The notes beneath the pieces were generated by a model. It ran no database searches. It was not told where the DNA came from and saw nothing but the letters and a program-made list of their open reading frames with translations. From the IMG/VR virus record IMGVR_UViG_3300029998_000597: 64,000 nucleotides of DNA, one strand, 5' to 3'. Below are positions 19,623 to 61,020 of the stretch, piece by piece (the first letter of the stretch is position 1; every line of letters begins with the position of its first letter). Source of the DNA: a virus (lineage: Duplodnaviria; Caudoviricetes). Made by a program: the position numbers and the translations under genes.

Positions 19623-22600
19623 ATGTCAGATTCACCAACAATTGGAAAAGTTTTATATTTCGATCCAAACAACAGCATTGTAGATATAAATGGAAATATA
19701 AGTGATAAACCATCTGATCTAATGCAAAACCCAGAAGATCTTTGTATTGGGGTTGACTTACAGGTAACAGTTAAAAATCAGAGTAATATAACTTCAAGTG
19801 ATAAAAAAACAACTTATAATTTAATTGGTCCGAATACTAAAATAAATTTTTTAGAAGGTGAAAATTTGGGTGGCGTAAATGTACTAACTGATTTTTTTGC
19901 TAATTTAGGCGATAAGGATAATGATGTTGAAAATATTCATGAGGCAATGTGTGTTAGTTCAATTGATATTGAATTTAGTTCATGGTATGCTGCATCGGTT
20001 GTTATTAATTTTACAGATGTTAGGGGTGCGTCCCTAATGTCATCGGCTGATTATGTGGATACTTTAAAGGATAGTAATTTAAGTGTTGGTGATAAAAATC
20101 AAAGTCTATTTAAATCATTTTTTGATTTTCCATATCCAATATATATCTTAAAGATTAAAGGGTTTTATGGTGATGCCGTTTCTTATCCTCTACATTGTTC
20201 TGATTTCAAAGCAACTTTTAATGCAACAACAGGTAATTTTGATATAGTTGTTAGTTTCATTGGTTACACATACGCAATGCTAAATGATGTACAAATGTCA
20301 TATTTAATGGCTGCTCCTTATTGTAAATTTGCTGGTGCTGGTTCTGATTATTGGGATGCTCAGGTGGCTAATGGTAGATTTTTATCATCGGATGGGTCAC
20401 CATTACCCAAATTAGTTTCATTGATGAATAAAGTCAAAGAAGGTGATTATCAAATAAAAAAAATATCGCAAAATTCAGTTTCAAGCGGGTTACAAGAAAA
20501 AAAGAACGAACGAAATATGCTATTTGATATTAAGGATAATTATTTAAAACCTTATTTATCTGAAATAAAAACAACTTACAATAGTGGTATTTATGATTAC
20601 GAACTTAATTTAGTGAATATAAATTCAAAAGCAGCTACCTTAATAGATGGGACGCTAAACAATATATTAAATACACAAATAGATAATATAGATAAAAAAA
20701 TACTTGAATATAAAGAAATATTTCCAACATCGATTGTTTTTAATTCATATAGTGGTAAAAGCTGGTTAAAACCAAAAAAATCGAGCGATGGTAATTTTGA
20801 AGTTATATTTAAACCAATAGGCGTTGCAATGGTTGATTTAAATAATAAATTAACCGAACAAATAGCCGACCTAAGTAATTTATTAAACAACGAAAAAAAC
20901 AATAGTCTTACTGAGGTATATGAAATGAAACCAAATATATATAATTATTTTAAGGTGTTGGTTGCTCATATGGAAACATTTTATAATCTGATTTATATTT
21001 GCAAACATAAAATCCCTGAAGATAGACATTTTGATAAAAATATGGGTTTAAATTCAACAGATTTAAAAATTAAATATGATAAACAAGGGCAACCAATTTT
21101 ATCTCCATTTCCTTGGTATTCACAACTTGGAAAAGATGGTAGAATGGAAGATGCTTGGATTGGAGAAGTTGCGCCTAATTTATTAGAAGTTGAACTTATC
21201 GATGCGTTAATAAATGCTAAGACAGATATACAAAAAGAATTAGATAAAATAAAAGTAAATGAAGTAATAAAAGAACCTAATAATATAGACCCAAAGGCTA
21301 CTGTTACGATTGGTGAGCTTTATTATCCAATGAATGCATTTGATAATACAATTAATTTAATTGGAGGAAAAACAGAAAACCCATATAAAGATTTTAAAGA
21401 AAATGATATAAATACTATTTATGATCGCTTATTTTTAAGAACCTATATATCTAATTTATTATCTGGGGCTGCTACACATGTGGATTATAATCAAAATTTT
21501 GCATTAGCAGAATCAAGAAATATATTTGAGGAAGTTGGTGGAAATACTTTTAAATTAGAACAAATTCAAAATCAAATAAGAGTATTAGATGGTAAGACGG
21601 TTACCGATATGAGTAAATATAATAATACTTTTAGGGATAAATGGGCAAATACAGATAAATGGGTTTCAAAGTTTTTACCATTATTTGAAGATATTAATGT
21701 TAATTACACTTCTTATGGTAAACAAGTTGATTTATTAGAAAAAAGAAATAAACATTGGGTTTCGTTTGATCCAGATTATAATGGACAATTATTTAAGAAA
21801 CAAACTAATTTTTCTATTGTTGAAGGTACAGAAAACGCAAATAAAATAACAAACGATTATTATTTAAAAATTATTAATAATATTAAAAACAGTGGTCAAA
21901 ATTTTGATAAAATAATGAATAACTATTATTTTATTGATGATAAAAATGACCCAATTTCCTATAAGTATATAGGGGGTGATAGCTCAGGCACTAATATATT
22001 TAATAAAATATGTGAAGCTAAAAGACATCCACTTGATAATGTTAAGGCTAAAGAAAATTCAGTAAATACAAATGCCTTTATTGTTTACGATAAAGCTAAA
22101 ATAAATCCAAAGTTTATATATCAAGAAAGTATTAATTTTGATACTTTATATAATATTTATTTACCAGCAGGAGGAAAAATATTAAATAGTAATTCTGATA
22201 TATTTAAAAACTATCAAAAAAGTAAAGATCCTTCAGTGTCTAATAATTATTCATACCCATTTATTGGTGGATATTATTTTGATATTCCGTTTTCGCTTTT
22301 CGGTCATCCTTTCTATTATAATCAAGCTGGAACTTTTAATACATCCAATGATAAAAACTTACAAGTATCCGATTTTCATAAGGCTATATTATTTTTAAAT
22401 TCATTGAATATTAATGTAAAAGAAACTGAATCTTTATTTTTAGAAAATAAAAATAATGGGGTTTACAATTCAAGTAATTATTTAAATAGAGCTTCATTTA
22501 TGGCTCGTTTACCAAAAGCTTCTATATTATTAATAGGTGGAATGCTTTGGCAATTTAATAATTCATTTCCTTTTAAAGGATTAAAAGGTATTAAATTACC

Positions 22601-25430
22601 AAATAGAAATCAATATTTTAAAAAAAATAATTTATTTACATTAATAGGAGAGGAACAAACTAGTGTTAATTATGAAAATTGTAATTTATTTTTTAAAGAT
22701 GAAAACAATCAATCAGTGGATAAATATAAAAGTATATTTAGTGTAGCTGAAGAAGATTTTCTAATTAAGGAATTTACAAATTGGGCAATAATTGATTGGC
22801 AAAAAATTAAAAATCAATTTGAACTAAGAATTAAAACTAAAGACGTTAACACAAATAAGACAGTTATTGGGCCACGGGGCTTGAAATCTTTAGTAGAAAA
22901 TATATCAGAAATTTATTTAGAAAATAATATAAGCAATTTATATAATTATATTAATATTTCTAATAATAATTTTATTGAAAGATCAAAAGAGATAGAAAAA
23001 GAACATTCAAGTCAATATAAAGCTCTACAGGTATTAGATTTTTTAATTTTAATTAATAAAGATGATACCGTTGGAGTTAAAACAATTATTAATTTATTAT
23101 TAACAGACTGCGTATTAGCATATAGTGGAAACAATATGAATGGTAATATTATTAATGTTAGCACTATGCAAAAAACAATGCTGTCTACAATAAACAACAA
23201 TTTAGGTAGTATTAAAAACCCATCAGTTCAAACAGCACTCGGCATCACGAATATTAAAAATTCAGATAAAAAAGGTATTGCATCGATTGATTATAATCCC
23301 GATATGAAATTAGCTGTTTATTCTTATATAAAAACACTTAATGATAAGTGGGTTAGTGGATTTTCCGATCCATCTGAATACCAATGGATAACAAGTAAAA
23401 AAGATATTAACACAAAAGTTAGTCAATTTAAAGCACTACCAAATGTTGTTGGCGATTATTATATCCGAAATTTTAGGTTCATTGATAGGGCACATAATGA
23501 TATAGGTGTGGATATGTTAATAAATTATAGACAATTATTTGATTTAATAGATTCAAACACAACCCAGAAAACGTTATTTTCAGCGATGACAGATGTTTTA
23601 CAACAAAATCAAATGTTATTTTTACCAATGCCAAGCTACCAATCATTTGATAACGCAAAAGATTTTAGTAAAATATTTAAACCAATACCATTTGTTGAAT
23701 CTAAATTAATGACTAATGATGTTGATTATGACACATCAATGTATTTATGTATGTATGCTGGTAGACCATCAAGTAAATTAGATCAAGGAAAAAATGGAAT
23801 GTTTGATAATGATGGGTATTCATTTAATAAACCACATGAATTACCAAGTGATTATAAAACACACGATAATAATCAAGAAGAACAAGCTCAAGTACCAGCA
23901 ATTGCTGTAAACTTTGGTCAACAGAATCAACAATATTTTAAAAATGTGCAGTTGAATATGTCAAATCCGAATACGACAGATGCATCTATTAGAATTCTTA
24001 AAAATTTAAATGACAGAGCAAGTCAAAACGCAACGGTAGAACCAATCGGACAAGATTTATTTAGTTTATATAGTCAATATTCATATTCTTGTGAAGTTGA
24101 GATGATGGGTTGTCCTCAAATACAACCAATGATGTATTTCCAATTGAATAATATACCAATGTGGAATGGTGCATATATGATTTTTAAAATAAAACATTCA
24201 ATTAAACCTGGAACTATGACAACAAGTTTCACAGGTATGAGAATGGCAAAAACTTATCCAAAATTGATATCACAAAATGCTATTTCCTTTAAATTAGTTG
24301 GTGATTTAGAAAATTATGGGAATTTTACCGTACCAGTAGAGGGTAAAGATGAAGATAAATTTACAGATATAACAGCACCTGAAAACTCCAAATTAAAGTT
24401 TATTGATGGAAATCATTTCTTTGTAAAGGATTATTTTGTTTTTGGTGGAGAAGGATTGAAAGGTAAAAAAGTAACGGAAAAAGTTTATAATAGGATTAGT
24501 TATTTATCGCAGGTAGTTGAAAAAATTTATTCTGAATGGACAGGATTAGGATATAATTCATTTAATATATTATCAGCGTTTAGGGATAAACTAATTAACG
24601 GAAATAATGGATCAGCACATCTAATGGGTTTAGGTGTGGATATTCAAATACCGACAGATACATCAAAGGATGCTCAAAACTCTTTATTTTCATATATTCA
24701 AACAATGATGACAAAAGGATTACCTATTGACCAATTAATATTAGAAACTCGTAATAGTACATCTTATTTAATACATATTGGGTTAGCATCACAAACAGGT
24801 AATAAAAATGATGATAATAGAATACCAAAAATAGAAAGTAGTAGGTATGTATCTCGCGGAGAAGTTAAAACAATTAATTATAAAACAGATAATAATAAAT
24901 ATACCGAATTAACGAAAATACCTGAAGCTATGTGGCCTCAAACAGGTGAACAATCGATTAAAGATACAACAAAACCAACAAATACAAAAGACGTACAATT
25001 ATATGTAAAAACAACATTAAAAAATAGTGGGTTAAGTAAATTTCAAGTGGCTGGTGTAATGGGTAATATTTACCAAGAGAGTACTTTTAATTTAAACGCA
25101 AATCCAGCGACAACAGCCCATAATATGTATTATGGTTTAATCCAATGGAGTTTAGCATCATACAATCAAGGTGGAACATATGAAGGGTTAAAAACAAAGG
25201 TTGGTAATACAAAAGAATCACAAATGACATATTTGATTAACCACACAAATGGTTATTCTAATTTCGTTAACTTAAGTCAATCAAGTAAAACCCCAGAAGA
25301 AGCGTCGTTGATATTTTCAAATAAAGTTGAGATTTGTGGTAAATCATGTGTAAATGCGGATAGAGATGCTTTTTCTCGAAGTTTTTATCAAAGATTTAAT
25401 GATCCTAATGATTATTTATATTGGGGGTAA
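19623..25430 (+). CDS. Baseplate hub / tail-associated lysin, 1935 aa, with peptidase M15 and phage tail lysozyme domains
   Basis: Hub motifs (LKIKGFYG...FNATTGNFDIVVSFIGY; YSCEVEMMGCPQIQPMMYFQLNNIPMWNGAYMI..IKHSI). M15-like SAFR...SAHLMGLGVDIQ...DQLILE...IHIG. Lysozyme-like QVAGVMGNIYQES...YGLIQW. Confidence 0.8.
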   Translation: MSDSPTIGKVLYFDPNNSIVDINGNISDKPSDLMQNPEDLCIGVDLQVTVKNQSNITSSDKKTTYNLIGPNTKINFLEGENLGGVNVLTDFFANLGDKDNDVENIHEAMCVSSIDIEFSSWYAASVVINFTDVRGASLMSSADYVDTLKDSNLSVGDKNQSLFKSFFDFPYPIYILKIKGFYGDAVSYPLHCSDFKATFNATTGNFDIVVSFIGYTYAMLNDVQMSYLMAAPYCKFAGAGSDYWDAQVANGRFLSSDGSPLPKLVSLMNKVKEGDYQIKKISQNSVSSGLQEKKNERNMLFDIKDNYLKPYLSEIKTTYNSGIYDYELNLVNINSKAATLIDGTLNNILNTQIDNIDKKILEYKEIFPTSIVFNSYSGKSWLKPKKSSDGNFEVIFKPIGVAMVDLNNKLTEQIADLSNLLNNEKNNSLTEVYEMKPNIYNYFKVLVAHMETFYNLIYICKHKIPEDRHFDKNMGLNSTDLKIKYDKQGQPILSPFPWYSQLGKDGRMEDAWIGEVAPNLLEVELIDALINAKTDIQKELDKIKVNEVIKEPNNIDPKATVTIGELYYPMNAFDNTINLIGGKTENPYKDFKENDINTIYDRLFLRTYISNLLSGAATHVDYNQNFALAESRNIFEEVGGNTFKLEQIQNQIRVLDGKTVTDMSKYNNTFRDKWANTDKWVSKFLPLFEDINVNYTSYGKQVDLLEKRNKHWVSFDPDYNGQLFKKQTNFSIVEGTENANKITNDYYLKIINNIKNSGQNFDKIMNNYYFIDDKNDPISYKYIGGDSSGTNIFNKICEAKRHPLDNVKAKENSVNTNAFIVYDKAKINPKFIYQESINFDTLYNIYLPAGGKILNSNSDIFKNYQKSKDPSVSNNYSYPFIGGYYFDIPFSLFGHPFYYNQAGTFNTSNDKNLQVSDFHKAILFLNSLNINVKETESLFLENKNNGVYNSSNYLNRASFMARLPKASILLIGGMLWQFNNSFPFKGLKGIKLPNRNQYFKKNNLFTLIGEEQTSVNYENCNLFFKDENNQSVDKYKSIFSVAEEDFLIKEFTNWAIIDWQKIKNQFELRIKTKDVNTNKTVIGPRGLKSLVENISEIYLENNISNLYNYINISNNNFIERSKEIEKEHSSQYKALQVLDFLILINKDDTVGVKTIINLLLTDCVLAYSGNNMNGNIINVSTMQKTMLSTINNNLGSIKNPSVQTALGITNIKNSDKKGIASIDYNPDMKLAVYSYIKTLNDKWVSGFSDPSEYQWITSKKDINTKVSQFKALPNVVGDYYIRNFRFIDRAHNDIGVDMLINYRQLFDLIDSNTTQKTLFSAMTDVLQQNQMLFLPMPSYQSFDNAKDFSKIFKPIPFVESKLMTNDVDYDTSMYLCMYAGRPSSKLDQGKNGMFDNDGYSFNKPHELPSDYKTHDNNQEEQAQVPAIAVNFGQQNQQYFKNVQLNMSNPNTTDASIRILKNLNDRASQNATVEPIGQDLFSLYSQYSYSCEVEMMGCPQIQPMMYFQLNNIPMWNGAYMIFKIKHSIKPGTMTTSFTGMRMAKTYPKLISQNAISFKLVGDLENYGNFTVPVEGKDEDKFTDITAPENSKLKFIDGNHFFVKDYFVFGGEGLKGKKVTEKVYNRISYLSQVVEKIYSEWTGLGYNSFNILSAFRDKLINGNNGSAHLMGLGVDIQIPTDTSKDAQNSLFSYIQTMMTKGLPIDQLILETRNSTSYLIHIGLASQTGNKNDDNRIPKIESSRYVSRGEVKTINYKTDNNKYTELTKIPEAMWPQTGEQSIKDTTKPTNTKDVQLYVKTTLKNSGLSKFQVAGVMGNIYQESTFNLNANPATTAHNMYYGLIQWSLASYNQGGTYEGLKTKVGNTKESQMTYLINHTNGYSNFVNLSQSSKTPEEASLIFSNKVEICGKSCVNADRDAFSRSFYQRFNDPNDYLYWG

Positions 25431-25449
25431 TAATAATCCCTGAAACCAC

Positions 25450-25480
25450 TTGTTTTTCTCATATTTTATATGTACATTTG
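25450..25480 (+). promoter_or_regulatory. Bacteroidota-type promoter TTG-N20-TACATTTG
   Basis: cTTGtttttctcatattttatatgTACATTTG, upstream of the ATG at 25505. Confidence 0.85.
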
Positions 25481-31455: not shown

Positions 31456-33975
31456 ATGGCAAAGAGAGACGATTTAGGTTATTTAGGCACAGAATTTCAG
31501 TATAGATTGGCTCATCATTTTATGGATGATAAGAAATTTTTTAGAGATGTTTCTGATATGGTTGATACAAATATGTTCACAGATGTAAATGTTAGACGGT
31601 TCATGGGAACGCTTAAAAATTTTTTCGATATAAATGATTATGTTCCATCTTATGAACAGGCAGAAATAGAATTACGTTCAACAACAAATAGTGATCAGGA
31701 TATTGAATTTGTGGTTGAAATTGTTAAAAAGATTAAAAACACAACCTGTGAAGGTGCTGATTCAATTAAAACAAAGGCCCATAAATTTTTCAAACAACAA
31801 AATATGGCCAAAGTTTATAATCAAATGGGTAAATTTATTAGCGATGGTGATATTGATAAATATGATGAATTAGAAGAATTAATTAGAAATGCATTAGCGA
31901 CTGGCAACAGAGAAGAAATAGGTATTCACCTTAGAGACAACTTAGGTGAAGTACTTTCAGAAGATTATAGAAAAGTCGTACCAACTGGAGTTAAAGGCGT
32001 TGACGATGCGCTTGAAGGTGGGCTTGGGCGAGGTGAATTAGGTGTTATAATAGGACCTTCATCTTTTGGTAAAGAGCAACCAATCAGCGAGTTAGTGTGT
32101 ACTCCAGATGGATTTAGAACTATGGGTTCAATTGAAGTAGGTGATTTTGTTATTGGTGGAAATGGAAAACCAGTCAAAGTAATTAATACCTTTCCACAGG
32201 GAGTTAAAGACGTATATAAAGTTACTTTTTCTGATAAAGTTTCAGTAGAATGCGGTATAGATCATTTATGGAATGTTAATTCAGTATATCAAAGGTGTGG
32301 TAAAAAATACGTTAGTGGTGTTAGTAAAAGTCGTGATGATAAATATTATATACCAGATCACACATATCAAACATTATCATTGAAACAAATTTTAGAAAAA
32401 GGGTTATTTAAAAACTATGCTGGACACCCTAAAAGACATAACTTTAAAGTTCCAATGCCAGAAGCGGTTCAGTTTAACACAATAGATATACCAGAAACAT
32501 TACCACCTTATTTTATAGGGGCATTTATTGGAGATGGCTGTTTTTCAAGAATGGACATCACATCTGTTGACCAAGAAATAATTGATAAAATTTGTAAAAT
32601 AACAAATGTAGTTTCATTAAATAATTCAACAAGAGACCCACATATTACCAAAATTCAATTATCTTATTTACTAAAAGAACAATTATATAAATATTTTACA
32701 TTAGAAGAAAAAAGTGAAGATAAGTTTATACCAAACGATTATTTATATAATTCAATTGAAAATCGGATAGAATTATTAAATGGTCTTATGGATACCGATG
32801 GAACTTGTCAAAAAAATGGTTGTTCTTGTTATAATACAAAATCAAAACAATTAGCCGAAGATGTTAAAACACTTGTATTATCTTTAGGTGGATTTGCAAT
32901 TGTTAGAGAAAAAAATGCTTCTTATTTTAATAAAAAATATAATATTGGAGTAGATTGTGGTATTCATTATGAAGTAACAATTACATTAATAGATACAACT
33001 ATCCCAATATTTAATTTAAAAAGAAAACAAGATAGAGTTAATTATAGAACAAGTAAGAAAACACTTAGATTTATTGAGTCGGTTGAGTTAGTTAGACAAG
33101 AAGAGTCCAAATGTATTATGCTGGAAAGTGAAGATGGATTATATTTAACGCGAGATTTTATTGTTACACATAATACCTCATTAACAACAAGTTTTGCAAA
33201 TCATGCCGCTTTAAACAATTTTAAAGTACTTCAAATAATTTTTGAGGATAAGGAAAAACAAATTCAACGAAAACATATTGGGAAGATTACGGGTGTCGAG
33301 GCAAGAGATTTATCAAAACCAGAAAATATTGAAATGGTTAAAGATATTATGTCTTACACGGATGCTTTCGATGAAAATCTTGTAATTAAAAAATTTAATA
33401 CAGGGGAAGTTAATCCAGTTCAAATCAGGACATATATTAAGAGACTTATCAATACTGGTTTTAATCCAGATATGGTTATAGTGGATTATTTCGAATGTTT
33501 GGTAGCTTCAAAGAATTTCAAGGACCAGTGGACAGGAGAGGGTCATACAATGCGTCAATTAGAAGCAATAGCATCAGATTTAGATATTGCCTTATGGGTT
33601 CCAACCCAAGGAACGAAAGATTCATTAAATGCTGAAATTGTGACAATGGATAAAGCTGGTGGTAGTTTCAAAAAAATTCAAATTGCTCACATTGTAATAT
33701 CAATTGCCCGTTCAATGGAAGATATGGAAAATAATATTGCAACGATTGCTGTATTGAAAAATAGATCTGGTAAATCTGGTAGAGTAATGGAAGGTGCTTC
33801 ATTTAATAATGGTACTTGTGAGATAAACACTGATAATATCCAAATGTTTGAGGGAATGACAGATTATAATAGTTCTGAAGCTGAGAAAAAGCAAGAAAAA
33901 ACAAAAGATATTTTGGAAGCCGCAAGATTAAGAAGAGAATTGGCGAAAAAAGAAAAAGAAGAACAAAACAATTAA
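31456..33975 (+). CDS. dnaB: Replicative DNA helicase (DnaB / T4 gp41-like) interrupted by an intein
   Basis: GELGVIIGPSSFGK|TS split Walker A, DMVIVDYFECL, WVPTQG, and IAVLKNRSG arginine finger. Confidence 0.92.
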   Translation: MAKRDDLGYLGTEFQYRLAHHFMDDKKFFRDVSDMVDTNMFTDVNVRRFMGTLKNFFDINDYVPSYEQAEIELRSTTNSDQDIEFVVEIVKKIKNTTCEGADSIKTKAHKFFKQQNMAKVYNQMGKFISDGDIDKYDELEELIRNALATGNREEIGIHLRDNLGEVLSEDYRKVVPTGVKGVDDALEGGLGRGELGVIIGPSSFGKEQPISELVCTPDGFRTMGSIEVGDFVIGGNGKPVKVINTFPQGVKDVYKVTFSDKVSVECGIDHLWNVNSVYQRCGKKYVSGVSKSRDDKYYIPDHTYQTLSLKQILEKGLFKNYAGHPKRHNFKVPMPEAVQFNTIDIPETLPPYFIGAFIGDGCFSRMDITSVDQEIIDKICKITNVVSLNNSTRDPHITKIQLSYLLKEQLYKYFTLEEKSEDKFIPNDYLYNSIENRIELLNGLMDTDGTCQKNGCSCYNTKSKQLAEDVKTLVLSLGGFAIVREKNASYFNKKYNIGVDCGIHYEVTITLIDTTIPIFNLKRKQDRVNYRTSKKTLRFIESVELVRQEESKCIMLESEDGLYLTRDFIVTHNTSLTTSFANHAALNNFKVLQIIFEDKEKQIQRKHIGKITGVEARDLSKPENIEMVKDIMSYTDAFDENLVIKKFNTGEVNPVQIRTYIKRLINTGFNPDMVIVDYFECLVASKNFKDQWTGEGHTMRQLEAIASDLDIALWVPTQGTKDSLNAEIVTMDKAGGSFKKIQIAHIVISIARSMEDMENNIATIAVLKNRSGKSGRVMEGASFNNGTCEINTDNIQMFEGMTDYNSSEAEKKQEKTKDILEAARLRRELAKKEKEEQNN
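32074..33174 (+). mobile_element. Class-3 intein (367 aa, Glu1) with LAGLIDADG homing endonuclease
   Basis: Begins EQPISELVCTPDG. Block B CGIDHLW, block C FIGAFIGDG, block E LLNGLMDTDG, block F SKCIML, ends IVTHN|T. Removing it restores GPSSFGKTS. Confidence 0.9.
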
Positions 33976-33991
33976 AAACAAAATAAATAAA

Positions 33992-36250
33992 ATGCAAAAA
34001 GGTAAAAAATTTCTATCGGATTTAAAATTACATTCGGATTACTTGAAATGGAGAGAAGATTTAGGTCGATATGAAACGTGGGAAGAGGCTTGTGATTCAA
34101 TTATTGAAACCCATTTAAAAAAATATGGGGATAAGATAAAACCGTATACTGACTCAGCTGTTCAAAGCATGAAGGACAAATTGGTATTAGCATCACAACG
34201 AAGCCTACAATATCGCGGTGAACAATTAGAGAAACATAATAGTAGATTATACAACTGCACGACTGGCTATGTAGCTTACAATAAGATTTTCCAAGAGGTA
34301 TTTTATTTACTACTTAGTGGGTGTGGGTTCGGTGGCGGATTATTAATACCATTCGTTCAAAATATATCTAATATTGAGAAAAGAAATAATGGAACAAAAA
34401 CATTTATTATTCCAGACTCAATAGAGGGGTGGTCAGATTCTCTTGGTGTTTTAATGTCTTCGTATTTCAAAGATAACCAACCATTCCCAGAATATTATGG
34501 GTATGAAATTAAATTCGATTATTCAAAAATAAGAAAAAAAGGTGCTTTCATTAGTGGAGGGTTTAAAGCTCCTGGTTCTGAAGCATTAAAAAAATCATTA
34601 GAACAAATTGAAAATTTAATTGAAAATTGGTTATCTAAAGAAGGTAATGTTGTTAGACCTATTTTAGCATTCGACATACTTTGTTTTGCATCAAACGCTG
34701 TTCTTAGTGGTGGTGTTAGGCGATCAGCAATGGATATGATTATTGATGAAAATGATGATGAGATGATCAATGCAAAAATGGGGAATTGGTTTGAAACTAA
34801 CCCACAGAGGGCAAGGTCCAATAACTCTATTCTATTAAAAAGAGATAAAGTTGGAAAAGCTCAATTCGAAGAAATTATCAAAATGAACGATGGTGTTTCG
34901 GATATTGGTTTTGTTTTTGCAAATTCATATTTTGATATGTTTAATCCTTGTTTTGAGATTGCACAACTTCCAATATTATGGAATGATACGATGGACTTAG
35001 AAAATATTAAGTACGAAGAATTAGGTGATTTCATTAAAAATAACAGCCATTTATTAGGTATACAAGGTTGTAATCTAACAGAAATTTCAGCCGAAGCTTG
35101 TACTACAAAAGAAAAGTTCTTTAAAGCCTGTGCTGATGCAACTATTTTGGGAACAATTCAAGCTGGTTTTACATCGTTTTCATATTTAGGTGAAACAAGT
35201 GAAAAAATATTTCAAAAAGAATCTTTATTGGGGGTGTCAATTACAGGCTGGATGAATAATCCAAAATTATTCAACGCTGAATTATTACAAAAAGGAGTTG
35301 ATATCATAAGAAAGACCAATGTAGAAGTAGCAAAACTAATTGGTATTAACCCAGCTGCAAGGCTAACTTGTTGTAAACCAAGTGGTAATAGTAGTGTTAT
35401 TTTAGGTACATCCTCTGGCATTCACCCAGAACACGCTCAATCATATTTCAGGTTAATGCAACTAAATAAAGAAGCTGAAACCGCTAAATGGTTGAATGAA
35501 AATATGCCTTTCTTATTAGAAGAATCGGCGTGGTCTGATACTAATTCGGATTATGTTGTTTTTATACCAATAGAAAATTCAAAAGATGGTTTTTACAAAA
35601 AAGACATGACTGGTTTAGCACATCTTGAGAAAATCAAATTAGTTCAAGAAAATTGGGTAACTTACGGTACTAACCCAGAACTATGTGGATATCCACACAT
35701 TAATCACAACGTAAGCTGCACTGTTATTATTGATAATATTGAAGAAGTAATTGATTATATTTGGGATAATAAAAAGGCTTTTACGGCTGTATCATTTATA
35801 TCAAATACAGCCGATAGAGAATTTAATCAAGCCCCTTTTACAACGGTAAATACTATGGAAGAAATTATTTCTCTATATGGTAAAGGTTCTTTATTTGCAT
35901 CTGGGTTAATTGTAGATGGGTTACATTACTTTAAAAATAATTTATGGCTTGCTTGTGATAGCGTCCTTGATAGAGATTTATTAGTAACAGGAACAAGGGA
36001 AGAAGTACTTCTTAAAAAATATTGGTTAAGCTGCGCAAAGAAGTTTGCTAAAAACTATTTTAAAGGAGATCTAAAGAAAATGGTATATTGTTTAAAAGAT
36101 ATTCACCTAATTCATAAATGGGAGGTTATTAACCGACAAATGCGCGAGGTTGATTTTAATAAGATACTTAATAAACCAGCATTTAAAGATGTATCTGATT
36201 ATGCCGCCCAAGCCTGTTCTGGTGGGGCTTGTGAAATCAAAAGAGTGTAA
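33992..36250 (+). CDS. nrdJ: Class II (adenosylcobalamin-dependent) ribonucleoside-triphosphate reductase
   Basis: LYNC, GCGFG, GGVRRSA, RARSNNS, NPCFEI, CNLTEI, CKPSGN and C-terminal ACSGGACE motifs of monomeric RTPR. Confidence 0.9.
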   Translation: MQKGKKFLSDLKLHSDYLKWREDLGRYETWEEACDSIIETHLKKYGDKIKPYTDSAVQSMKDKLVLASQRSLQYRGEQLEKHNSRLYNCTTGYVAYNKIFQEVFYLLLSGCGFGGGLLIPFVQNISNIEKRNNGTKTFIIPDSIEGWSDSLGVLMSSYFKDNQPFPEYYGYEIKFDYSKIRKKGAFISGGFKAPGSEALKKSLEQIENLIENWLSKEGNVVRPILAFDILCFASNAVLSGGVRRSAMDMIIDENDDEMINAKMGNWFETNPQRARSNNSILLKRDKVGKAQFEEIIKMNDGVSDIGFVFANSYFDMFNPCFEIAQLPILWNDTMDLENIKYEELGDFIKNNSHLLGIQGCNLTEISAEACTTKEKFFKACADATILGTIQAGFTSFSYLGETSEKIFQKESLLGVSITGWMNNPKLFNAELLQKGVDIIRKTNVEVAKLIGINPAARLTCCKPSGNSSVILGTSSGIHPEHAQSYFRLMQLNKEAETAKWLNENMPFLLEESAWSDTNSDYVVFIPIENSKDGFYKKDMTGLAHLEKIKLVQENWVTYGTNPELCGYPHINHNVSCTVIIDNIEEVIDYIWDNKKAFTAVSFISNTADREFNQAPFTTVNTMEEIISLYGKGSLFASGLIVDGLHYFKNNLWLACDSVLDRDLLVTGTREEVLLKKYWLSCAKKFAKNYFKGDLKKMVYCLKDIHLIHKWEVINRQMREVDFNKILNKPAFKDVSDYAAQACSGGACEIKRV

Positions 36251-36308: not shown

Positions 36309-36316
36309 AATTTAAC

Positions 36317-36347
36317 TTGTTTTATTCAATAATTAAACGTATATTTG
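36317..36347 (+). promoter_or_regulatory. Bacteroidota-type promoter TTG-N20-TATATTTG
   Basis: cTTGttttattcaataattaaacgTATATTTG, upstream of the ATG at 36368. Confidence 0.85.
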
Positions 36348-36367: not shown

Positions 36368-36601
36368 ATGAAAGAAGAAAAAGAAATATTACCAACAAAA
36401 TGGTTTAAAACACAACAAATTTCAACCTGGATCGGAGAGCCACTTGGACAAATACCTGGAAAGCCTATTGAAGAATATGAGGGTGGTCACGGTAAATTAA
36501 TTATTATGCACCAATGTGGTGAAAATAAGCAAGAATTAAAAGGTCAAATACAAACTTTTTTATCTGGTTTAGATGAAGATTTTGAATATTTCGCCTGTTA
36601 A
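36368..36601 (+). CDS. Hypothetical protein
   Basis: 77-aa ORF, first gene after the promoter. Confidence 0.65.
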   Translation: MKEEKEILPTKWFKTQQISTWIGEPLGQIPGKPIEEYEGGHGKLIIMHQCGENKQELKGQIQTFLSGLDEDFEYFAC

Positions 36602-36629: not shown

Positions 36630-37781
36630 ATGAAACAAACAATCGAAATACAAGTTCCAAGTGGTAAGAAAGTAGTTATGAATCAAATGGAAAAAGGAAT
36701 GTTATTTACTTTCGAGGATAAAAATAATTTAGAGCTCTTACAAGATGATATGGATTATGTTAGGAGCTCAATATTATCATATATGGGAATTCCAAAAAAA
36801 ATTTTTGGTAATTATGAATTAGAACAAAAATTGGAAAGACAGAAATGTTTTGACGATAAAACTCGTATTTATATGATCGAAAAATATTTCAAAGTTTTTG
36901 ATGCTACCCAAATGAATAATGATAATCATGGAATGATTCCTTTCAAATTAATGGATCACCAAAAACTGATTTTAAGGTCACTGGTTGATAATAAAGGAAC
37001 GATAGTTAAATCATATCGCCAGGCAGGAAATACAGCTTTAATGGCAGCCTATTATGCCTGTGAGCTGATTTTAACTGAGGGTACGGATATATTATATATG
37101 TCAAGTAGCTTACAATGTAGTTCTATGTTTATGAAATTAGTAAGTGGTTTTATTGATCAATGGTTATTGGGAACTAATCAACCAATATTTGATTACGATA
37201 AAAACTGGGTTATAAATAATGGAAATGAGATCAAATTAGCAACAGGTACAAACATTAGAGTTATTAATCCAAATAAAGTATATTCTTTACAAAACATAGA
37301 ATTAGATAAAATAACACATATTATTTATGATAATTCTGCTTTTATCGAATTTGATGATGGATTTAGAGAGCTTATGGGTTACAAATTACCTGAAAATATT
37401 AAAACTACGATTATTTCAACAGACCAGAAGGTTAAGAATTGGTTTAAAGACAAATGGGATTCAGCTGATAAACAAGGTAATAAATTAAATAAAATCGAAC
37501 TTGAATGGTTTAATGACCCACGATACAATAAAGATTTAAAATGGGTTAAAGTCAGTCAAGAAGTTATCGAAAACGGTATTAATAAGATTAAACAAGCTTA
37601 TTTACCAACAAATGAGTGGTATGTTGGTATGTGTAGAATTTGGAATAATAAAGAAAGAATTGAACAGGAAATTGGTATTGGTTATAATCCGAACGAAAAT
37701 TATGTTGAAATAAAAAAGAATGATATTAGAGAACATATTTTACAATTAAATAATGAATTACAAAAATTAAAAAATCTATGA
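36630..37781 (+). CDS. Degenerate large-terminase ATPase-domain paralogue lacking the nuclease domain
   Basis: GMIPFKLMDHQ adenine-binding motif, Walker A-like SYRQAGNT (K to N), Walker B-like IIYDNSAF (E to N), ISTDQ coupling-motif position, then EQEIG and the end of the protein. Confidence 0.7.
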   Translation: MKQTIEIQVPSGKKVVMNQMEKGMLFTFEDKNNLELLQDDMDYVRSSILSYMGIPKKIFGNYELEQKLERQKCFDDKTRIYMIEKYFKVFDATQMNNDNHGMIPFKLMDHQKLILRSLVDNKGTIVKSYRQAGNTALMAAYYACELILTEGTDILYMSSSLQCSSMFMKLVSGFIDQWLLGTNQPIFDYDKNWVINNGNEIKLATGTNIRVINPNKVYSLQNIELDKITHIIYDNSAFIEFDDGFRELMGYKLPENIKTTIISTDQKVKNWFKDKWDSADKQGNKLNKIELEWFNDPRYNKDLKWVKVSQEVIENGINKIKQAYLPTNEWYVGMCRIWNNKERIEQEIGIGYNPNENYVEIKKNDIREHILQLNNELQKLKNL

Positions 37782-38218
37782 GTATAATTTTAAATGAATA
37801 CAATGAAGAAAATAGAATTGATAAAACTTGGTTCGATAGTTCTAACGTTAAATATTGTGAATGCGATGATAAATTGGATGCACTAAAAGAAGTTACTGTT
37901 TGCTTCTCAGACGGGCGAACTTACTCATACTCAGACGTTAAGGTAAACGATTACCTCATGTTTAGAAATTCTTTAAGCCAAGGTAAAGATATATTTAAAT
38001 ACATTGCGGTTAAAGATAATGGTGTTCCAAGATATAAAACAACCAGATTAGAAAATACCGATTTAACTTTATTAGAGGTTCAAAAACAACAAATTTTAGA
38101 ATCACGCGTTGAAAAACTAAAAGAGTTCAATAAAACATTGGTTGAATCACAAGTTGATTTAGAACCAGAATTTTCTAAACATATTAAAGATAATATTGAA
38201 GATTTATTAATGAAATAA
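37778..38218 (+). CDS. KTSC-domain-like protein
   Basis: DSSNVKY...VTVCFSDGRTYSYSDV...YLMFRNSLSQGK fits the KTSC pattern. Confidence 0.7.
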   Translation: MSIILNEYNEENRIDKTWFDSSNVKYCECDDKLDALKEVTVCFSDGRTYSYSDVKVNDYLMFRNSLSQGKDIFKYIAVKDNGVPRYKTTRLENTDLTLLEVQKQQILESRVEKLKEFNKTLVESQVDLEPEFSKHIKDNIEDLLMK

Positions 38219-54358: not shown

Positions 54359-54374
54359 TTATATTAAAAGCAAC

Positions 54375-54405
54375 TTGTTTTTCTTGATTCTTTTACGTAC
54401 ATTTG
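54375..54405 (+). promoter_or_regulatory. Bacteroidota-type promoter for the sbcC-sigma operon
   Basis: cTTGtttttcttgattcttttacgTACATTTG. Confidence 0.85.
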
Positions 54406-54433: not shown

Positions 54434-56851
54434 ATGTCAGTAAATAATAAATATAGAGTTAAAGTAGGGAAGAAATCAAAAATCAATGTTGAATGGAACG
54501 ACAATCCAATTAACTATTCTCATGAATCAAAAAAACATATTATATCGACATTTGCCGATAGATATGGAATACCAAAAGAATCGGTAAAAGTTTCTTTTAA
54601 TGCGATCAAATTAAATGAAAAAGGAGAACAAATAGATGTTTCGTCCGAGGTTATAAATAATATTCAAGATCCAAAATTTCAATTAAAACTATTTAATGAT
54701 TACATTATCGATAATAAAATCGAGAATATTGATTTTGAACATATAAAGGTTATTGATTCTGAGATAAATTCCAAAATTGATTACGATGTTTATGAAAAGT
54801 TTAGAAAATCTGAATTGGAATGGATTGAATGGAGCAATTTCCTAAGTTACGGTCCAGATAATAGGTTTGATTATACAGACTTAAAAGGCTTAATTCTTTT
54901 GAATGGTAGTATAGACGGAGTAACTAGTGGAAATCAAAACGGAAAAACTAGTTTCGCTATGGATTTAGTATCATTTTTATACTTCGGAAAAACTCAAAAG
55001 CCATACACGTTATCAGAATGTTTCAATAAATATTTAGATGTTACAACCTTTAATGTATGTGGTGGTATTAAAATAGACGGGTTAACTTATGTAATTGAAC
55101 GAGTAGTTACAAGAGCAAAAAAACGTACTGGTGAATGGGGAGATGCATCACAAAAGGTTAAATATTACCAAATAATAAATGGTGAAAAGGAAGAATTAAC
55201 GGATTCTATTTCAAACGAACAGGGTGAGTATTCAGTAAAAACCAATAAAATAATAAAAGAAGCTATCGGTAACGAAAAAGATTTTGGAATGATTGTAATG
55301 ACAACTGCTACTGATCTATTCTCTCTAATTGAAATGGGTAAAACAGAAACAGGTAAATTATTATCTAAATGGGTAGGATTATCACCACTGGAGGAAAAAG
55401 ATAAATTTGCAAAGGATAAATATAAAGAATTTGAAAAAGGTTTAAAATCAAAGTTATATGATAAAATAGAATTAACTTCGGTAATTGAAAACAATAATAT
55501 CTCTATCAAAACAAATAATGAAAATATTAATTTATCGAAAACCAGAGTTACTGAGCTAAATAAGTTAACAGAAATCGAACAGCAATCCAAGGACACATTA
55601 TTACTTTCAAAAAAACAAATCGATCAAAATATATTAAAATTAGATATTAATACGGTAAACGGTAGAATTGAAAAAATAAAACAAGAAGGTGCATCTAAAC
55701 GATTAGAATTAGCTGGATATAAATCAGAGTTTGAACTATTAAAAGATATTACATTCGATGAAATTATTTATAAGGGTAAGATTAATTTAGATAAAGAAAT
55801 TTCAATTGAAATAAGTAATATAAAAAATAAAATTACCACATTAAAATTAACAAACGAAAATTTAACTAAAAGCGAGTTTTGCCCAACATGTAAAAGGAAA
55901 TATGATGGTTTGGATAATTCTGGTGCAATATCACAAAACGAATTAAAAATAGAAGAATTAAAAAAATCTGGAATAACATCAGCTAATAATTTAAATACAA
56001 CTAAATCTGAAATTATTGAATTAGAAAATAATAAAAAAACTTTCGATAAAAAAGCAAAATTAATAGGTTTAATTGAAATAATACCAGTCCAAATTCAAAA
56101 TTTATTATCTCAATACAAAGAAAATGAACAAAAAATTAAAGATTTTAATGAAAATAAGGGTGCAATTGAAAAGAATAATCAGATAGATATCAGTCTAATA
56201 AACATCAATGCAAAAATTAGATCACTTACAATAGAAAGAGATGCCAAATTAAGAGAAATTGAAAATTTCGAAAGGAATATTGTTGAATTAGATAAAAAAA
56301 TTAAAACAAATGAGTTATTAATTAAAGAAATTAATACTGAAGCTATTTTAATCAGAGATTGGAAAGCTTATTTAGAAATGGTTGGTAAAAATGGTATTTC
56401 GAAAATGGTGTTAAAGAAAACACTACCAATTATAAATTCCGAATTAAGTAGACTTTTGGAAGATGTTTGTGATTTTGACATTGAAGTTGCTTTAACAGAT
56501 AAAAACGAGGTAGTTTTTAATATAATTAAAGATGATGTGGCATCAAGTTTGGGCGGTGCGTCTGGTTTCGAAAAAACAGCATCGGCGCTGGCTTTAAGAT
56601 GTGTTCTTGGGAATATATCAACAATGCCAAGACCAAACTTTTTAATTTTAGATGAAATTCTTGGCGGAGTTGCGAGTGAGAACTATGATAACATGAGAGA
56701 AATGTATAAGAAAATTGAAAAGGATTATCAATTCATTTTACACGTCACCCATCTGGATTCTATTAAGGATTGGCATAGCACTACCGTCCGAATCGACAAA
56801 CAGAAAAATATTTCATCCGCTAAAATAGAAATTAATGGTAATAACCAATAA
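54434..56851 (+). CDS. sbcC: SbcC/Rad50-like ATPase (T4 gp46-like)
   Basis: WSNFLSYG, Walker A GNQNGKTS, coiled coils with a CPTC zinc hook, signature ASGFEK, Walker B LILDE and H-loop VTH. Confidence 0.9.
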   Translation: MSVNNKYRVKVGKKSKINVEWNDNPINYSHESKKHIISTFADRYGIPKESVKVSFNAIKLNEKGEQIDVSSEVINNIQDPKFQLKLFNDYIIDNKIENIDFEHIKVIDSEINSKIDYDVYEKFRKSELEWIEWSNFLSYGPDNRFDYTDLKGLILLNGSIDGVTSGNQNGKTSFAMDLVSFLYFGKTQKPYTLSECFNKYLDVTTFNVCGGIKIDGLTYVIERVVTRAKKRTGEWGDASQKVKYYQIINGEKEELTDSISNEQGEYSVKTNKIIKEAIGNEKDFGMIVMTTATDLFSLIEMGKTETGKLLSKWVGLSPLEEKDKFAKDKYKEFEKGLKSKLYDKIELTSVIENNNISIKTNNENINLSKTRVTELNKLTEIEQQSKDTLLLSKKQIDQNILKLDINTVNGRIEKIKQEGASKRLELAGYKSEFELLKDITFDEIIYKGKINLDKEISIEISNIKNKITTLKLTNENLTKSEFCPTCKRKYDGLDNSGAISQNELKIEELKKSGITSANNLNTTKSEIIELENNKKTFDKKAKLIGLIEIIPVQIQNLLSQYKENEQKIKDFNENKGAIEKNNQIDISLININAKIRSLTIERDAKLREIENFERNIVELDKKIKTNELLIKEINTEAILIRDWKAYLEMVGKNGISKMVLKKTLPIINSELSRLLEDVCDFDIEVALTDKNEVVFNIIKDDVASSLGGASGFEKTASALALRCVLGNISTMPRPNFLILDEILGGVASENYDNMREMYKKIEKDYQFILHVTHLDSIKDWHSTTVRIDKQKNISSAKIEINGNNQ

Positions 56852-60970: not shown

Positions 60971-60989
60971 AACATTTTATAGTTTTAAC

Positions 60990-61020
60990 TTGTTTTTCTT
61001 AATTATTATTCGTACATTTG
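60990..61020 (+). promoter_or_regulatory. Bacteroidota-type promoter
   Basis: cTTGtttttcttaattattattcgTACATTTG. Confidence 0.85.

Follow-up and report, generated by a model that had tools for sequence, protein, structure and literature searches.

ORF383 is an intact open reading frame (ORF) of 383 amino acids located at 36630..37781 (plus strand) in a 64,000-nt stretch of phage DNA, referred to below as the window. The window is part of a 147,145-bp IMG/VR virus record (IMGVR_UViG_3300029998_000597, Caudoviricetes; CheckV completeness 41%) and has a GC content of approximately 28%. ORF383 encodes a paralog of the T4-type large-terminase (TerL) ATPase domain that lacks the nuclease domain and the catalytic Glu. 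An original prediction, made from the sequence alone, had described an intact reading frame with a TerL ATPase scaffold, and this description holds. All five motifs are present: PFKLMDHQ (residues 104-111), SYRQAGNT (128-135), IIYDNSAF (231-238), IST (262-264), and EQEIG (346-350). The only family-level matches of ORF383 are to TerL (PHROG 5989 'terminase large subunit', 2.5e-8). T4 gp17 chains in the Protein Data Bank (PDB) also match it, and tblastn gives approximately 25% identity to the gp17 genes of T4-like phages. No Pfam family matched ORF383; the profile Terminase_6N (PF03237) gave no match even at E up to 1, and its gathering score was not reached. An AlphaFold2 model built from a 136-row alignment has a predicted local distance difference test (pLDDT) score of 85. 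In a Foldseek search the best matches of this model are the ATPase domain of T4 gp17 (3cpe and 2o0h, E ~1e-11), followed by other TerL ATPase domains.

ORF383 ends approximately 35 residues past the ATPase domain, where full-length relatives run on into the nuclease domain. In the alignment and in the model, a C-terminal amphipathic helix (residues 363-382; 37716..37775, plus strand) occupies the point at which the nuclease domain is entered in full TerLs. A TerL-nuclease profile matched 87 of the retrieved proteins (see below), none of them in the short clade that includes ORF383. No PF17289 match or nuclease-coding sequence was found anywhere in the 147-kb record. The loss of the nuclease domain, also part of the original prediction, was thus confirmed. 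A split or intron-interrupted TerL was considered and ruled out, because nuclease-coding sequence is missing downstream and elsewhere in the record, and because the following ORF begins within the stop codon of ORF383. At the N-terminus, ORF383 is extended by approximately 60 amino acids compared to the nearest TerLs. The extension had been called novel, which is correct for residues 4-32 (IEIQVPSGKKV...LFTFEDK; 36639..36725, plus strand) but not for residues 49-62, which still align to T4 gp17 residues 110-123. The segment 4-32 is a family-specific motif and is predicted to form a beta-hairpin with strands at residues 4-8 and 14-18. Its residues P10, K13, E21, G23, L25, and E29 are conserved at 90% or more in the ORF383 family.

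The active-site motifs were compared across relatives. Among 1.84 billion representative proteins, HMMER found 370 matches; the ATPase domains of 135 of these were aligned and the motif columns read. The adenine-binding Q-motif region of ORF383 (PFKLMDHQ; 36939..36962, plus strand) contains Q111, which is invariant in the family. Also invariant are R130, Q131, and G133 of the degenerate P-loop (SYRQAGNT; 37011..37034, plus strand) and the Walker B Asp, D234; position 135 is either Thr or Ser. The P-loop has no Lys at the deviant or at the classical Walker A position. After the Walker B strand (IIYD, within 37320..37343, plus strand), ORF383 has N235 where the catalytic Glu would be. The C-motif IST (37413..37421, plus strand) is followed by Asp, where Pro is usual.

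Full-length TerLs in the alignment (n = 72) are nearly uniform at these positions. The deviant N-terminal Walker A Lys (KxRQxGx[ST]) is present in 67, the classical GK[ST] in the other five, and none is without a Walker A Lys; the Asp-Glu pair (DE) is found in 71 and the C-motif STP in 70. The deviant arrangement in terminases was described by Mitchell and Rao (2004), as cited in PMC6379665. Among the short, nuclease-less relatives outside the ORF383 family (n = 36), 25 carry the deviant Lys and 11 have no Walker A Lys; 20 have DE, eight have DN, and eight have other pairs, with STP in 27. The ORF383 family (nine members scored) has lost these residues altogether: Lys at either Walker A position and DE are each found in 0/9 (DN in six, DD in two, DT in one), and the C-motif reads STD in five. 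A Lys one residue before the deviant position is present in 8/9. The replacement of the catalytic Glu by Asn, as originally predicted, was therefore upheld (D234-N235; DE in none of the family against 71 of 72 full-length TerLs). The predicted change of the Walker A Lys to Asn was correct only when ORF383 is read against T4 gp17, in which K166 aligns with N134. Of the related TerLs, 67 of 72 also have no Lys at that position and use the deviant Lys. The K-to-N change was ruled out as the relevant loss: the N134 position is occupied by I, V, or A in the nearest real TerLs, and what ORF383 has lost is the deviant Lys and the catalytic Glu. At the deviant position, five residues before the Gly, ORF383 has S128, and K127 is one residue out of register. 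Lambda terminase can neither hydrolyze ATP nor translocate DNA once its catalytic Glu is replaced non-conservatively (PMC6379665). Judged by its motif states, ORF383 has presumably lost ATP hydrolysis and may retain nucleotide binding.

ORF383 belongs to a family. Four proteins of 378-389 amino acids are 37-57% identical to it over the full length, and five more distant family members (358-479 amino acids) carry extra N-terminal domains. The resulting subfamily of 9-10 members is alignable across 34-61% identity. In a FastTree phylogeny of 136 ATPase domains, 46 short rows separated from 90 mostly full-length rows with support of 99. An IQ-TREE analysis of 89 rows recovered a short-only clade of 43 rows, with a Shimodaira-Hasegawa-like approximate likelihood ratio test (SH-aLRT) value of 90, and nested in it the ORF383 family of nine rows (SH-aLRT 94). 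Since the root of the tree is unknown, the short grouping is a split rather than a proven clade. The ESM Atlas also holds several viral clusters of 257-330 amino acids, with 51-127 members each, which carry mainly Terminase_6N. By sequence, ORF383 falls within a distinct group of approximately 45 nuclease-less paralogs of the TerL N-terminal domain (TerL-N) in T4-like, mostly jumbo, phages.

Gene context was checked for seven clade members from outside the ORF383 subfamily. Six of them (P0064, P0160, P0087, P0143, P0114, and P0170) are encoded directly upstream of a full TerL of 583-631 amino acids, and in five of these six loci portal, prohead protease, or gp23 genes come next. In the sixth locus, an IS605 OrfB/TnpB-type element (L233:7283-8482) is inserted between P0170 and its TerL. 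In T4-like phages, the slot directly upstream of TerL is where the small-terminase gene 16 is found (e.g., in the annotated Pelagibacter phage Mosig). P0114 and P0170 have DN and are thus Glu-less, yet they keep the position upstream of TerL. ORF383 itself is not TerL-adjacent: no TerL is found in the 48 kb before it or the 98 kb after it. The top-scoring TerLs against ORF383 (P0006 and P0007) are located among head genes with no short paralog adjoining.

The genes around ORF383 form a T4-like set that includes a tail sheath protein, dUTPase, a RecA/UvsX-like protein, a DnaB-like helicase, a class II-type ribonucleotide reductase, gp25-like and gp6-like baseplate proteins, and an SbcC/gp46-like protein. 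ORF383 is located between the ribonucleotide reductase on one side and baseplate (wedge) genes on the other. The gene order is the same around P0018, a homolog with 38% identity (locus L012). Two complete relatives, with gp6-like proteins 42-46% identical to that of the record, have genomes of 363-380 kb, and the record is therefore considered a jumbo-phage fragment. Immediately upstream of ORF383, with a gap of 28 bp, is a 77-amino-acid ORF (36368..36601, plus strand) with no family match, which is probably co-transcribed with ORF383. A homolog of this small ORF precedes the ORF383 homolog in contig L018 and is absent in contig L021. Downstream, a KTSC-domain gene (37778..38218, plus strand; PF13619, 8.8e-5) overlaps the ORF383 stop codon (ATGA). 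KTSC-domain genes were also found elsewhere (L015:2138-2584, L026:2862-3290, L027:74-520, and L233:3956-4312), and in other phages such a gene is located 2-8 kb upstream of the TerL-adjacent short paralog. The KTSC gene near short paralogs may be a remnant of a common ancestral neighborhood.

Some further observations were made in the same block. The DnaB-like helicase (31456-33975, 839 amino acids) contains a LAGLIDADG homing-endonuclease insert, probably an intein; the L012 homolog is 466 amino acids long and has no insert. The class II-type ribonucleotide reductase varies among relatives (33992-36250 in the window, L019:2359-5871, and L021:5831-8497). One form of 1170 amino acids apparently contains an inserted segment, and the L019 and L021 forms end in a Cys-rich tail. 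The block from the ribonucleotide reductase to the baseplate genes is an insertion hot spot. Elsewhere in the window, an ORF of 1935 amino acids (19623-25430) has a phage tail lysozyme domain (PF18013) at its C-terminus and probably encodes a very large protein of the tail or tape-measure type.

A promoter-like motif, CTTGTTTT-N16-TATATTTG (36316..36347, plus strand), is located 20 bp upstream of the 77-amino-acid ORF. Its degenerate form, CTTGTTTT-N16-TAnnTTTG, occurs in four copies in the window (25449-25480, 36316-36347, 54374-54405, and 60989-61020) against 0.13 expected. The other three copies precede 25505, the SbcC/gp46-like gene at 54434, and 61047. We take this motif to resemble the Bacteroidota -33/-7 promoter consensus, a likeness that hints at a Bacteroidota host. 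A second motif, TATTTATA, is a candidate late-promoter motif. It is found in 57 copies in the window (32 expected), often within approximately 45 bp upstream of structural genes such as sheath and gp25 (e.g., 5595, 9985, 13190, 39466, and 57592), and it is absent upstream of ORF383. The original prediction had placed ORF383 under a host-type promoter rather than the late motif. The type of promoter stands, given the enrichment of the CTTGTTTT-type motif and the lack of TATTTATA upstream, but the promoter precedes the 77-amino-acid ORF and not ORF383 itself, and a generic sigma-70 scan of the window showed no enrichment (48 sites against 45 expected). The promoter at 36316-36347 would serve a two-gene unit of the 77-amino-acid ORF and ORF383, and the expression would be of an early type.

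ORF383 is the fastest-evolving gene of its block, under constraint that is present but relaxed (omega < 1). Between the window and contig L002, omega, the ratio of nonsynonymous to synonymous substitution rates (NG86), is 0.37 for ORF383 and 0.05-0.23 for the neighboring genes. Between L012 (P0018) and L018, it is 0.55 for the ORF383 homolog and 0.04-0.11 for the neighbors. The nonsynonymous rate (dN) between the window and L012 is 0.575 for ORF383 against 0.12-0.39 for the neighbors, and the amino acid identity is 38% against 55-82%. Damaged copies were also found. G006 and G007, which are identical to each other over 3.4 kb, have intact flanking genes, but their ORF383 copy is frameshifted in an A6 run and reads TAA, in frame, precisely where YRQAG has its invariant Gln. 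Stop-codon recoding was considered for this copy; one CAA-to-TAA mutation would explain the stop more simply, and the frame is also shifted. L018 and L019 contain one frameshift each, both in A-runs, which could be assembly errors. In L021 (IMGVR_UViG_3300029911_000277), the DNA is 75-81% identical to the window, but of ORF383 only codons 4-32 are left, and the body of the gene is replaced by a 449-amino-acid RRXRR plus HNH (IscB-like) gene (L021:8918-10267). This looks like a mobile nuclease gene displacing an accessory phage gene.

The frame is intact (378-479 amino acids) in at least eight lineages with identity down to 34-38%, and a protein identical to ORF383 is found on many contigs (at least 16 in one search and at least 23 in another), which are up to approximately 263 kb long. 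Because of this long persistence, the conserved motifs, and omega < 1, ORF383 appears to do something where it is kept. The original prediction had named neutral decay among homologs as the mark of a pseudogene; broken or replaced copies do exist, but intact frames are kept elsewhere with omega < 1. The view of ORF383 as a repurposed pseudo-enzyme rather than a recent pseudogene agrees with the intact frame, the alignability of the family across its whole identity range, its own N-terminal motif, and omega < 1.

Apart from ORF383, no TerL was detected in the 147-kb record by Pfam Terminase_6N and 6C profiles or by tblastn, for which the queries were the TerL of Mosig and six related ones. The record also has no portal, major capsid, protease, or gp13 gene, i.e., the head module as a whole is missing, and the absence of TerL is therefore uninformative. 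In the complete relatives, TerL is located 90-100 kb from the gp6-like gene, and by this spacing it would fall past the left end of the record. Scans of IMG/VR and metagenomes with the family alignment found only short contigs for close relatives.

Our tentative preference, to which we would give somewhat less than an even chance, is that ORF383 is a functional, non-catalytic, terminase-associated accessory protein derived from a duplicated large-terminase ATPase domain. The basic role of the clade would be to serve the packaging terminase as a partner or regulator. Since even the Glu-less members are found beside TerL, this role appears to be independent of ATP hydrolysis. In the ORF383 lineage, the gene would have left the vicinity of TerL for an operon with a host-type (Bacteroidota-like) promoter and would have acquired the conserved N-terminal hairpin motif and the C-terminal helix. 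Since the Q-motif Gln, RQxGxT, and the Walker B Asp are kept and the Lys and Glu are lost, ORF383 probably binds nucleotide or holds the ATP-state shape without turnover. Among the functions originally proposed, a packaging regulator is the best fit, with six of the seven sampled clade members outside the subfamily TerL-adjacent, whereas a decoy found no positive support. Several observations weigh against our preferred reading. The seventh clade member checked for context (P0153) has replication genes rather than TerL as neighbors, in a prophage-like stretch on a bacterial contig. The phage's own TerL is not seen in the record. In the two complete relatives TerL is present but a short paralog is not, and packaging therefore does not generally require one. 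The ORF383 gene is broken or replaced in four related contigs (G006/G007, L021, L018, and L019); together with its absence from the complete relatives, this indicates that ORF383 is dispensable, and because of the breakage it is more likely an accessory modulator than an essential subunit. The damaged copies and elevated omega also fit an arms-race protein or drift towards loss.

Drift towards loss would make ORF383 a decaying relic, a displaced duplicate of the TerL-adjacent paralog without function. The loss of all catalytic residues, an omega of 0.37-0.55 (several-fold above the neighbors), the nonsense codon and frameshift in G006/G007, the L021 replacement, the L018 and L019 frameshifts, and the absence of the gene from complete relatives would all be expected of such a relic. 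The explanation is nonetheless unlikely in view of the intact frames in at least eight diverged lineages, the invariance of the N-terminal motif and the nucleotide-binding residues, omega below 1, and the identical protein on many contigs. An immune decoy or inhibitor, made early and occupying the defense proteins Avs1-3 or Upx without triggering them, or having lost its active site in escape from ATP-dependent recognition, is doubtful to a similar degree. EcAvs2 and Upx recognize the TerL ATPase domain alone, and EcAvs2 contacts the terminase-bound ATP (Evans et al., 2026), so that changes in the Walker motifs could alter recognition. The host-type promoter is also found ahead of a non-structural gene, and rapid evolution with repeated loss is usual for accessory counter-defense genes. 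However, EcAvs2 is activated, not blocked, by TerL ATPase domains on their own and by the T4 protein vs.8, which resembles TerL (Evans et al., 2026), and for this reason a TerL look-alike made early is more likely to be a liability. Most clade relatives, moreover, are encoded beside TerL and not among early genes.

That position beside TerL also argues for cooperation with the phage's own TerL and against a weapon aimed at competing phages, in which a hydrolysis-dead subunit would enter the TerL rings of co-infecting relatives and stall their motors. Catalytic-Glu mutants of ring ATPases are typically dominant-negative, and the early promoter and accessory behavior would fit. Such a protein would have to spare its own TerL, and we consider this explanation improbable. 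It is very hard to believe that ORF383 is the phage's real and only large terminase. It is the sole TerL-like sequence in the 147-kb record, but it lacks both the nuclease domain and the catalytic Glu; completeness of the record is only approximately 41%, with the portal, major capsid, protease, and gp13 genes missing as well; and the TerL of relatives is located so far from the gp6-like gene that it would be beyond the record end. A wider picture, which is speculative and which we rate as distinctly unlikely, is that the terminase of many T4-like, mostly jumbo, phages consists of TerL and a TerL-derived paralog acting as the small terminase, and that ORF383 is such a paralog set free, catalytically dead, and re-used early in infection against terminase-sensing immunity or rival motors.

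Truncated terminase paralogs of Rak2-like phages and the terminase-like T4 vs.8 are already known, with no natural role assigned. What appears to be new is how large the family is, how regularly it occupies the small-terminase slot, and the existence of the relocated, degenerate, fast-evolving ORF383 branch. If the short paralogs are true terminase subunits, the accepted picture of a terminase made of a small subunit (TerS) plus TerL would leave out a component in a large group of big phages. The ORF383 branch would then offer a natural case of what becomes of a subunit after it leaves the packaging module, and it is a candidate for testing against terminase-sensing defense proteins.

Compared with TerLs of the T4 gp17 type, ORF383 shares the ATPase fold, the Q-motif, the Arg, Gln, Gly, and Thr of the P-loop, the Walker B Asp, and the Ser-Thr of the C-motif. 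It differs in lacking the nuclease domain, the catalytic Glu, and the Walker A Lys, in its own N-terminal motif and C-terminal helix, and in its location outside the head module. The six TerL-adjacent short paralogs group with ORF383 in both trees; they have the same domain end-point and no nuclease domain, and some are Glu-less. They are shorter (278-310 amino acids) and have no N-terminal extension, whereas ORF383 is relocated, longer, and catalytically degenerate in every member of its subfamily. With TerS (T4 gp16), ORF383 has no sequence or fold similarity; the TerS profile PF11053 was not found in the record or in four relatives (two of them complete), a result that is uninformative as TerS proteins diverge fast. 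Most sampled clade members nevertheless sit where TerS would be encoded, and they could plausibly regulate packaging without acting as a motor.

Two other groups of TerL-like proteins can be compared. A 'truncated' gp17-like gene beside the real one has been described in Rak2-like jumbo phages, CBB among them, and in phiM12 and phiN3 (PMC5259590). The CBB protein, CBB_274 (235 amino acids), is degenerate by its record (IRGAGLST and IIYDS) and, like ORF383, is a nuclease-less TerL-N-like protein. Unlike ORF383, it adjoins its own TerL and groups in the tree with that TerL lineage, which is of the classical GKT type; because of this grouping, CBB_274 is probably the product of an independent duplication. 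T4 vs.8, an early-region protein, is similar to ORF383 in being a stand-alone TerL-ATPase-like protein encoded away from the packaging genes, but it is only 219 amino acids long and keeps GKS and DE; its activation of EcAvs2 is seen on co-expression. A phmmer search of vs.8 against 165 stored proteins and searches of vs.8 with both clade profiles detected no sequence link to ORF383 at E up to 10.

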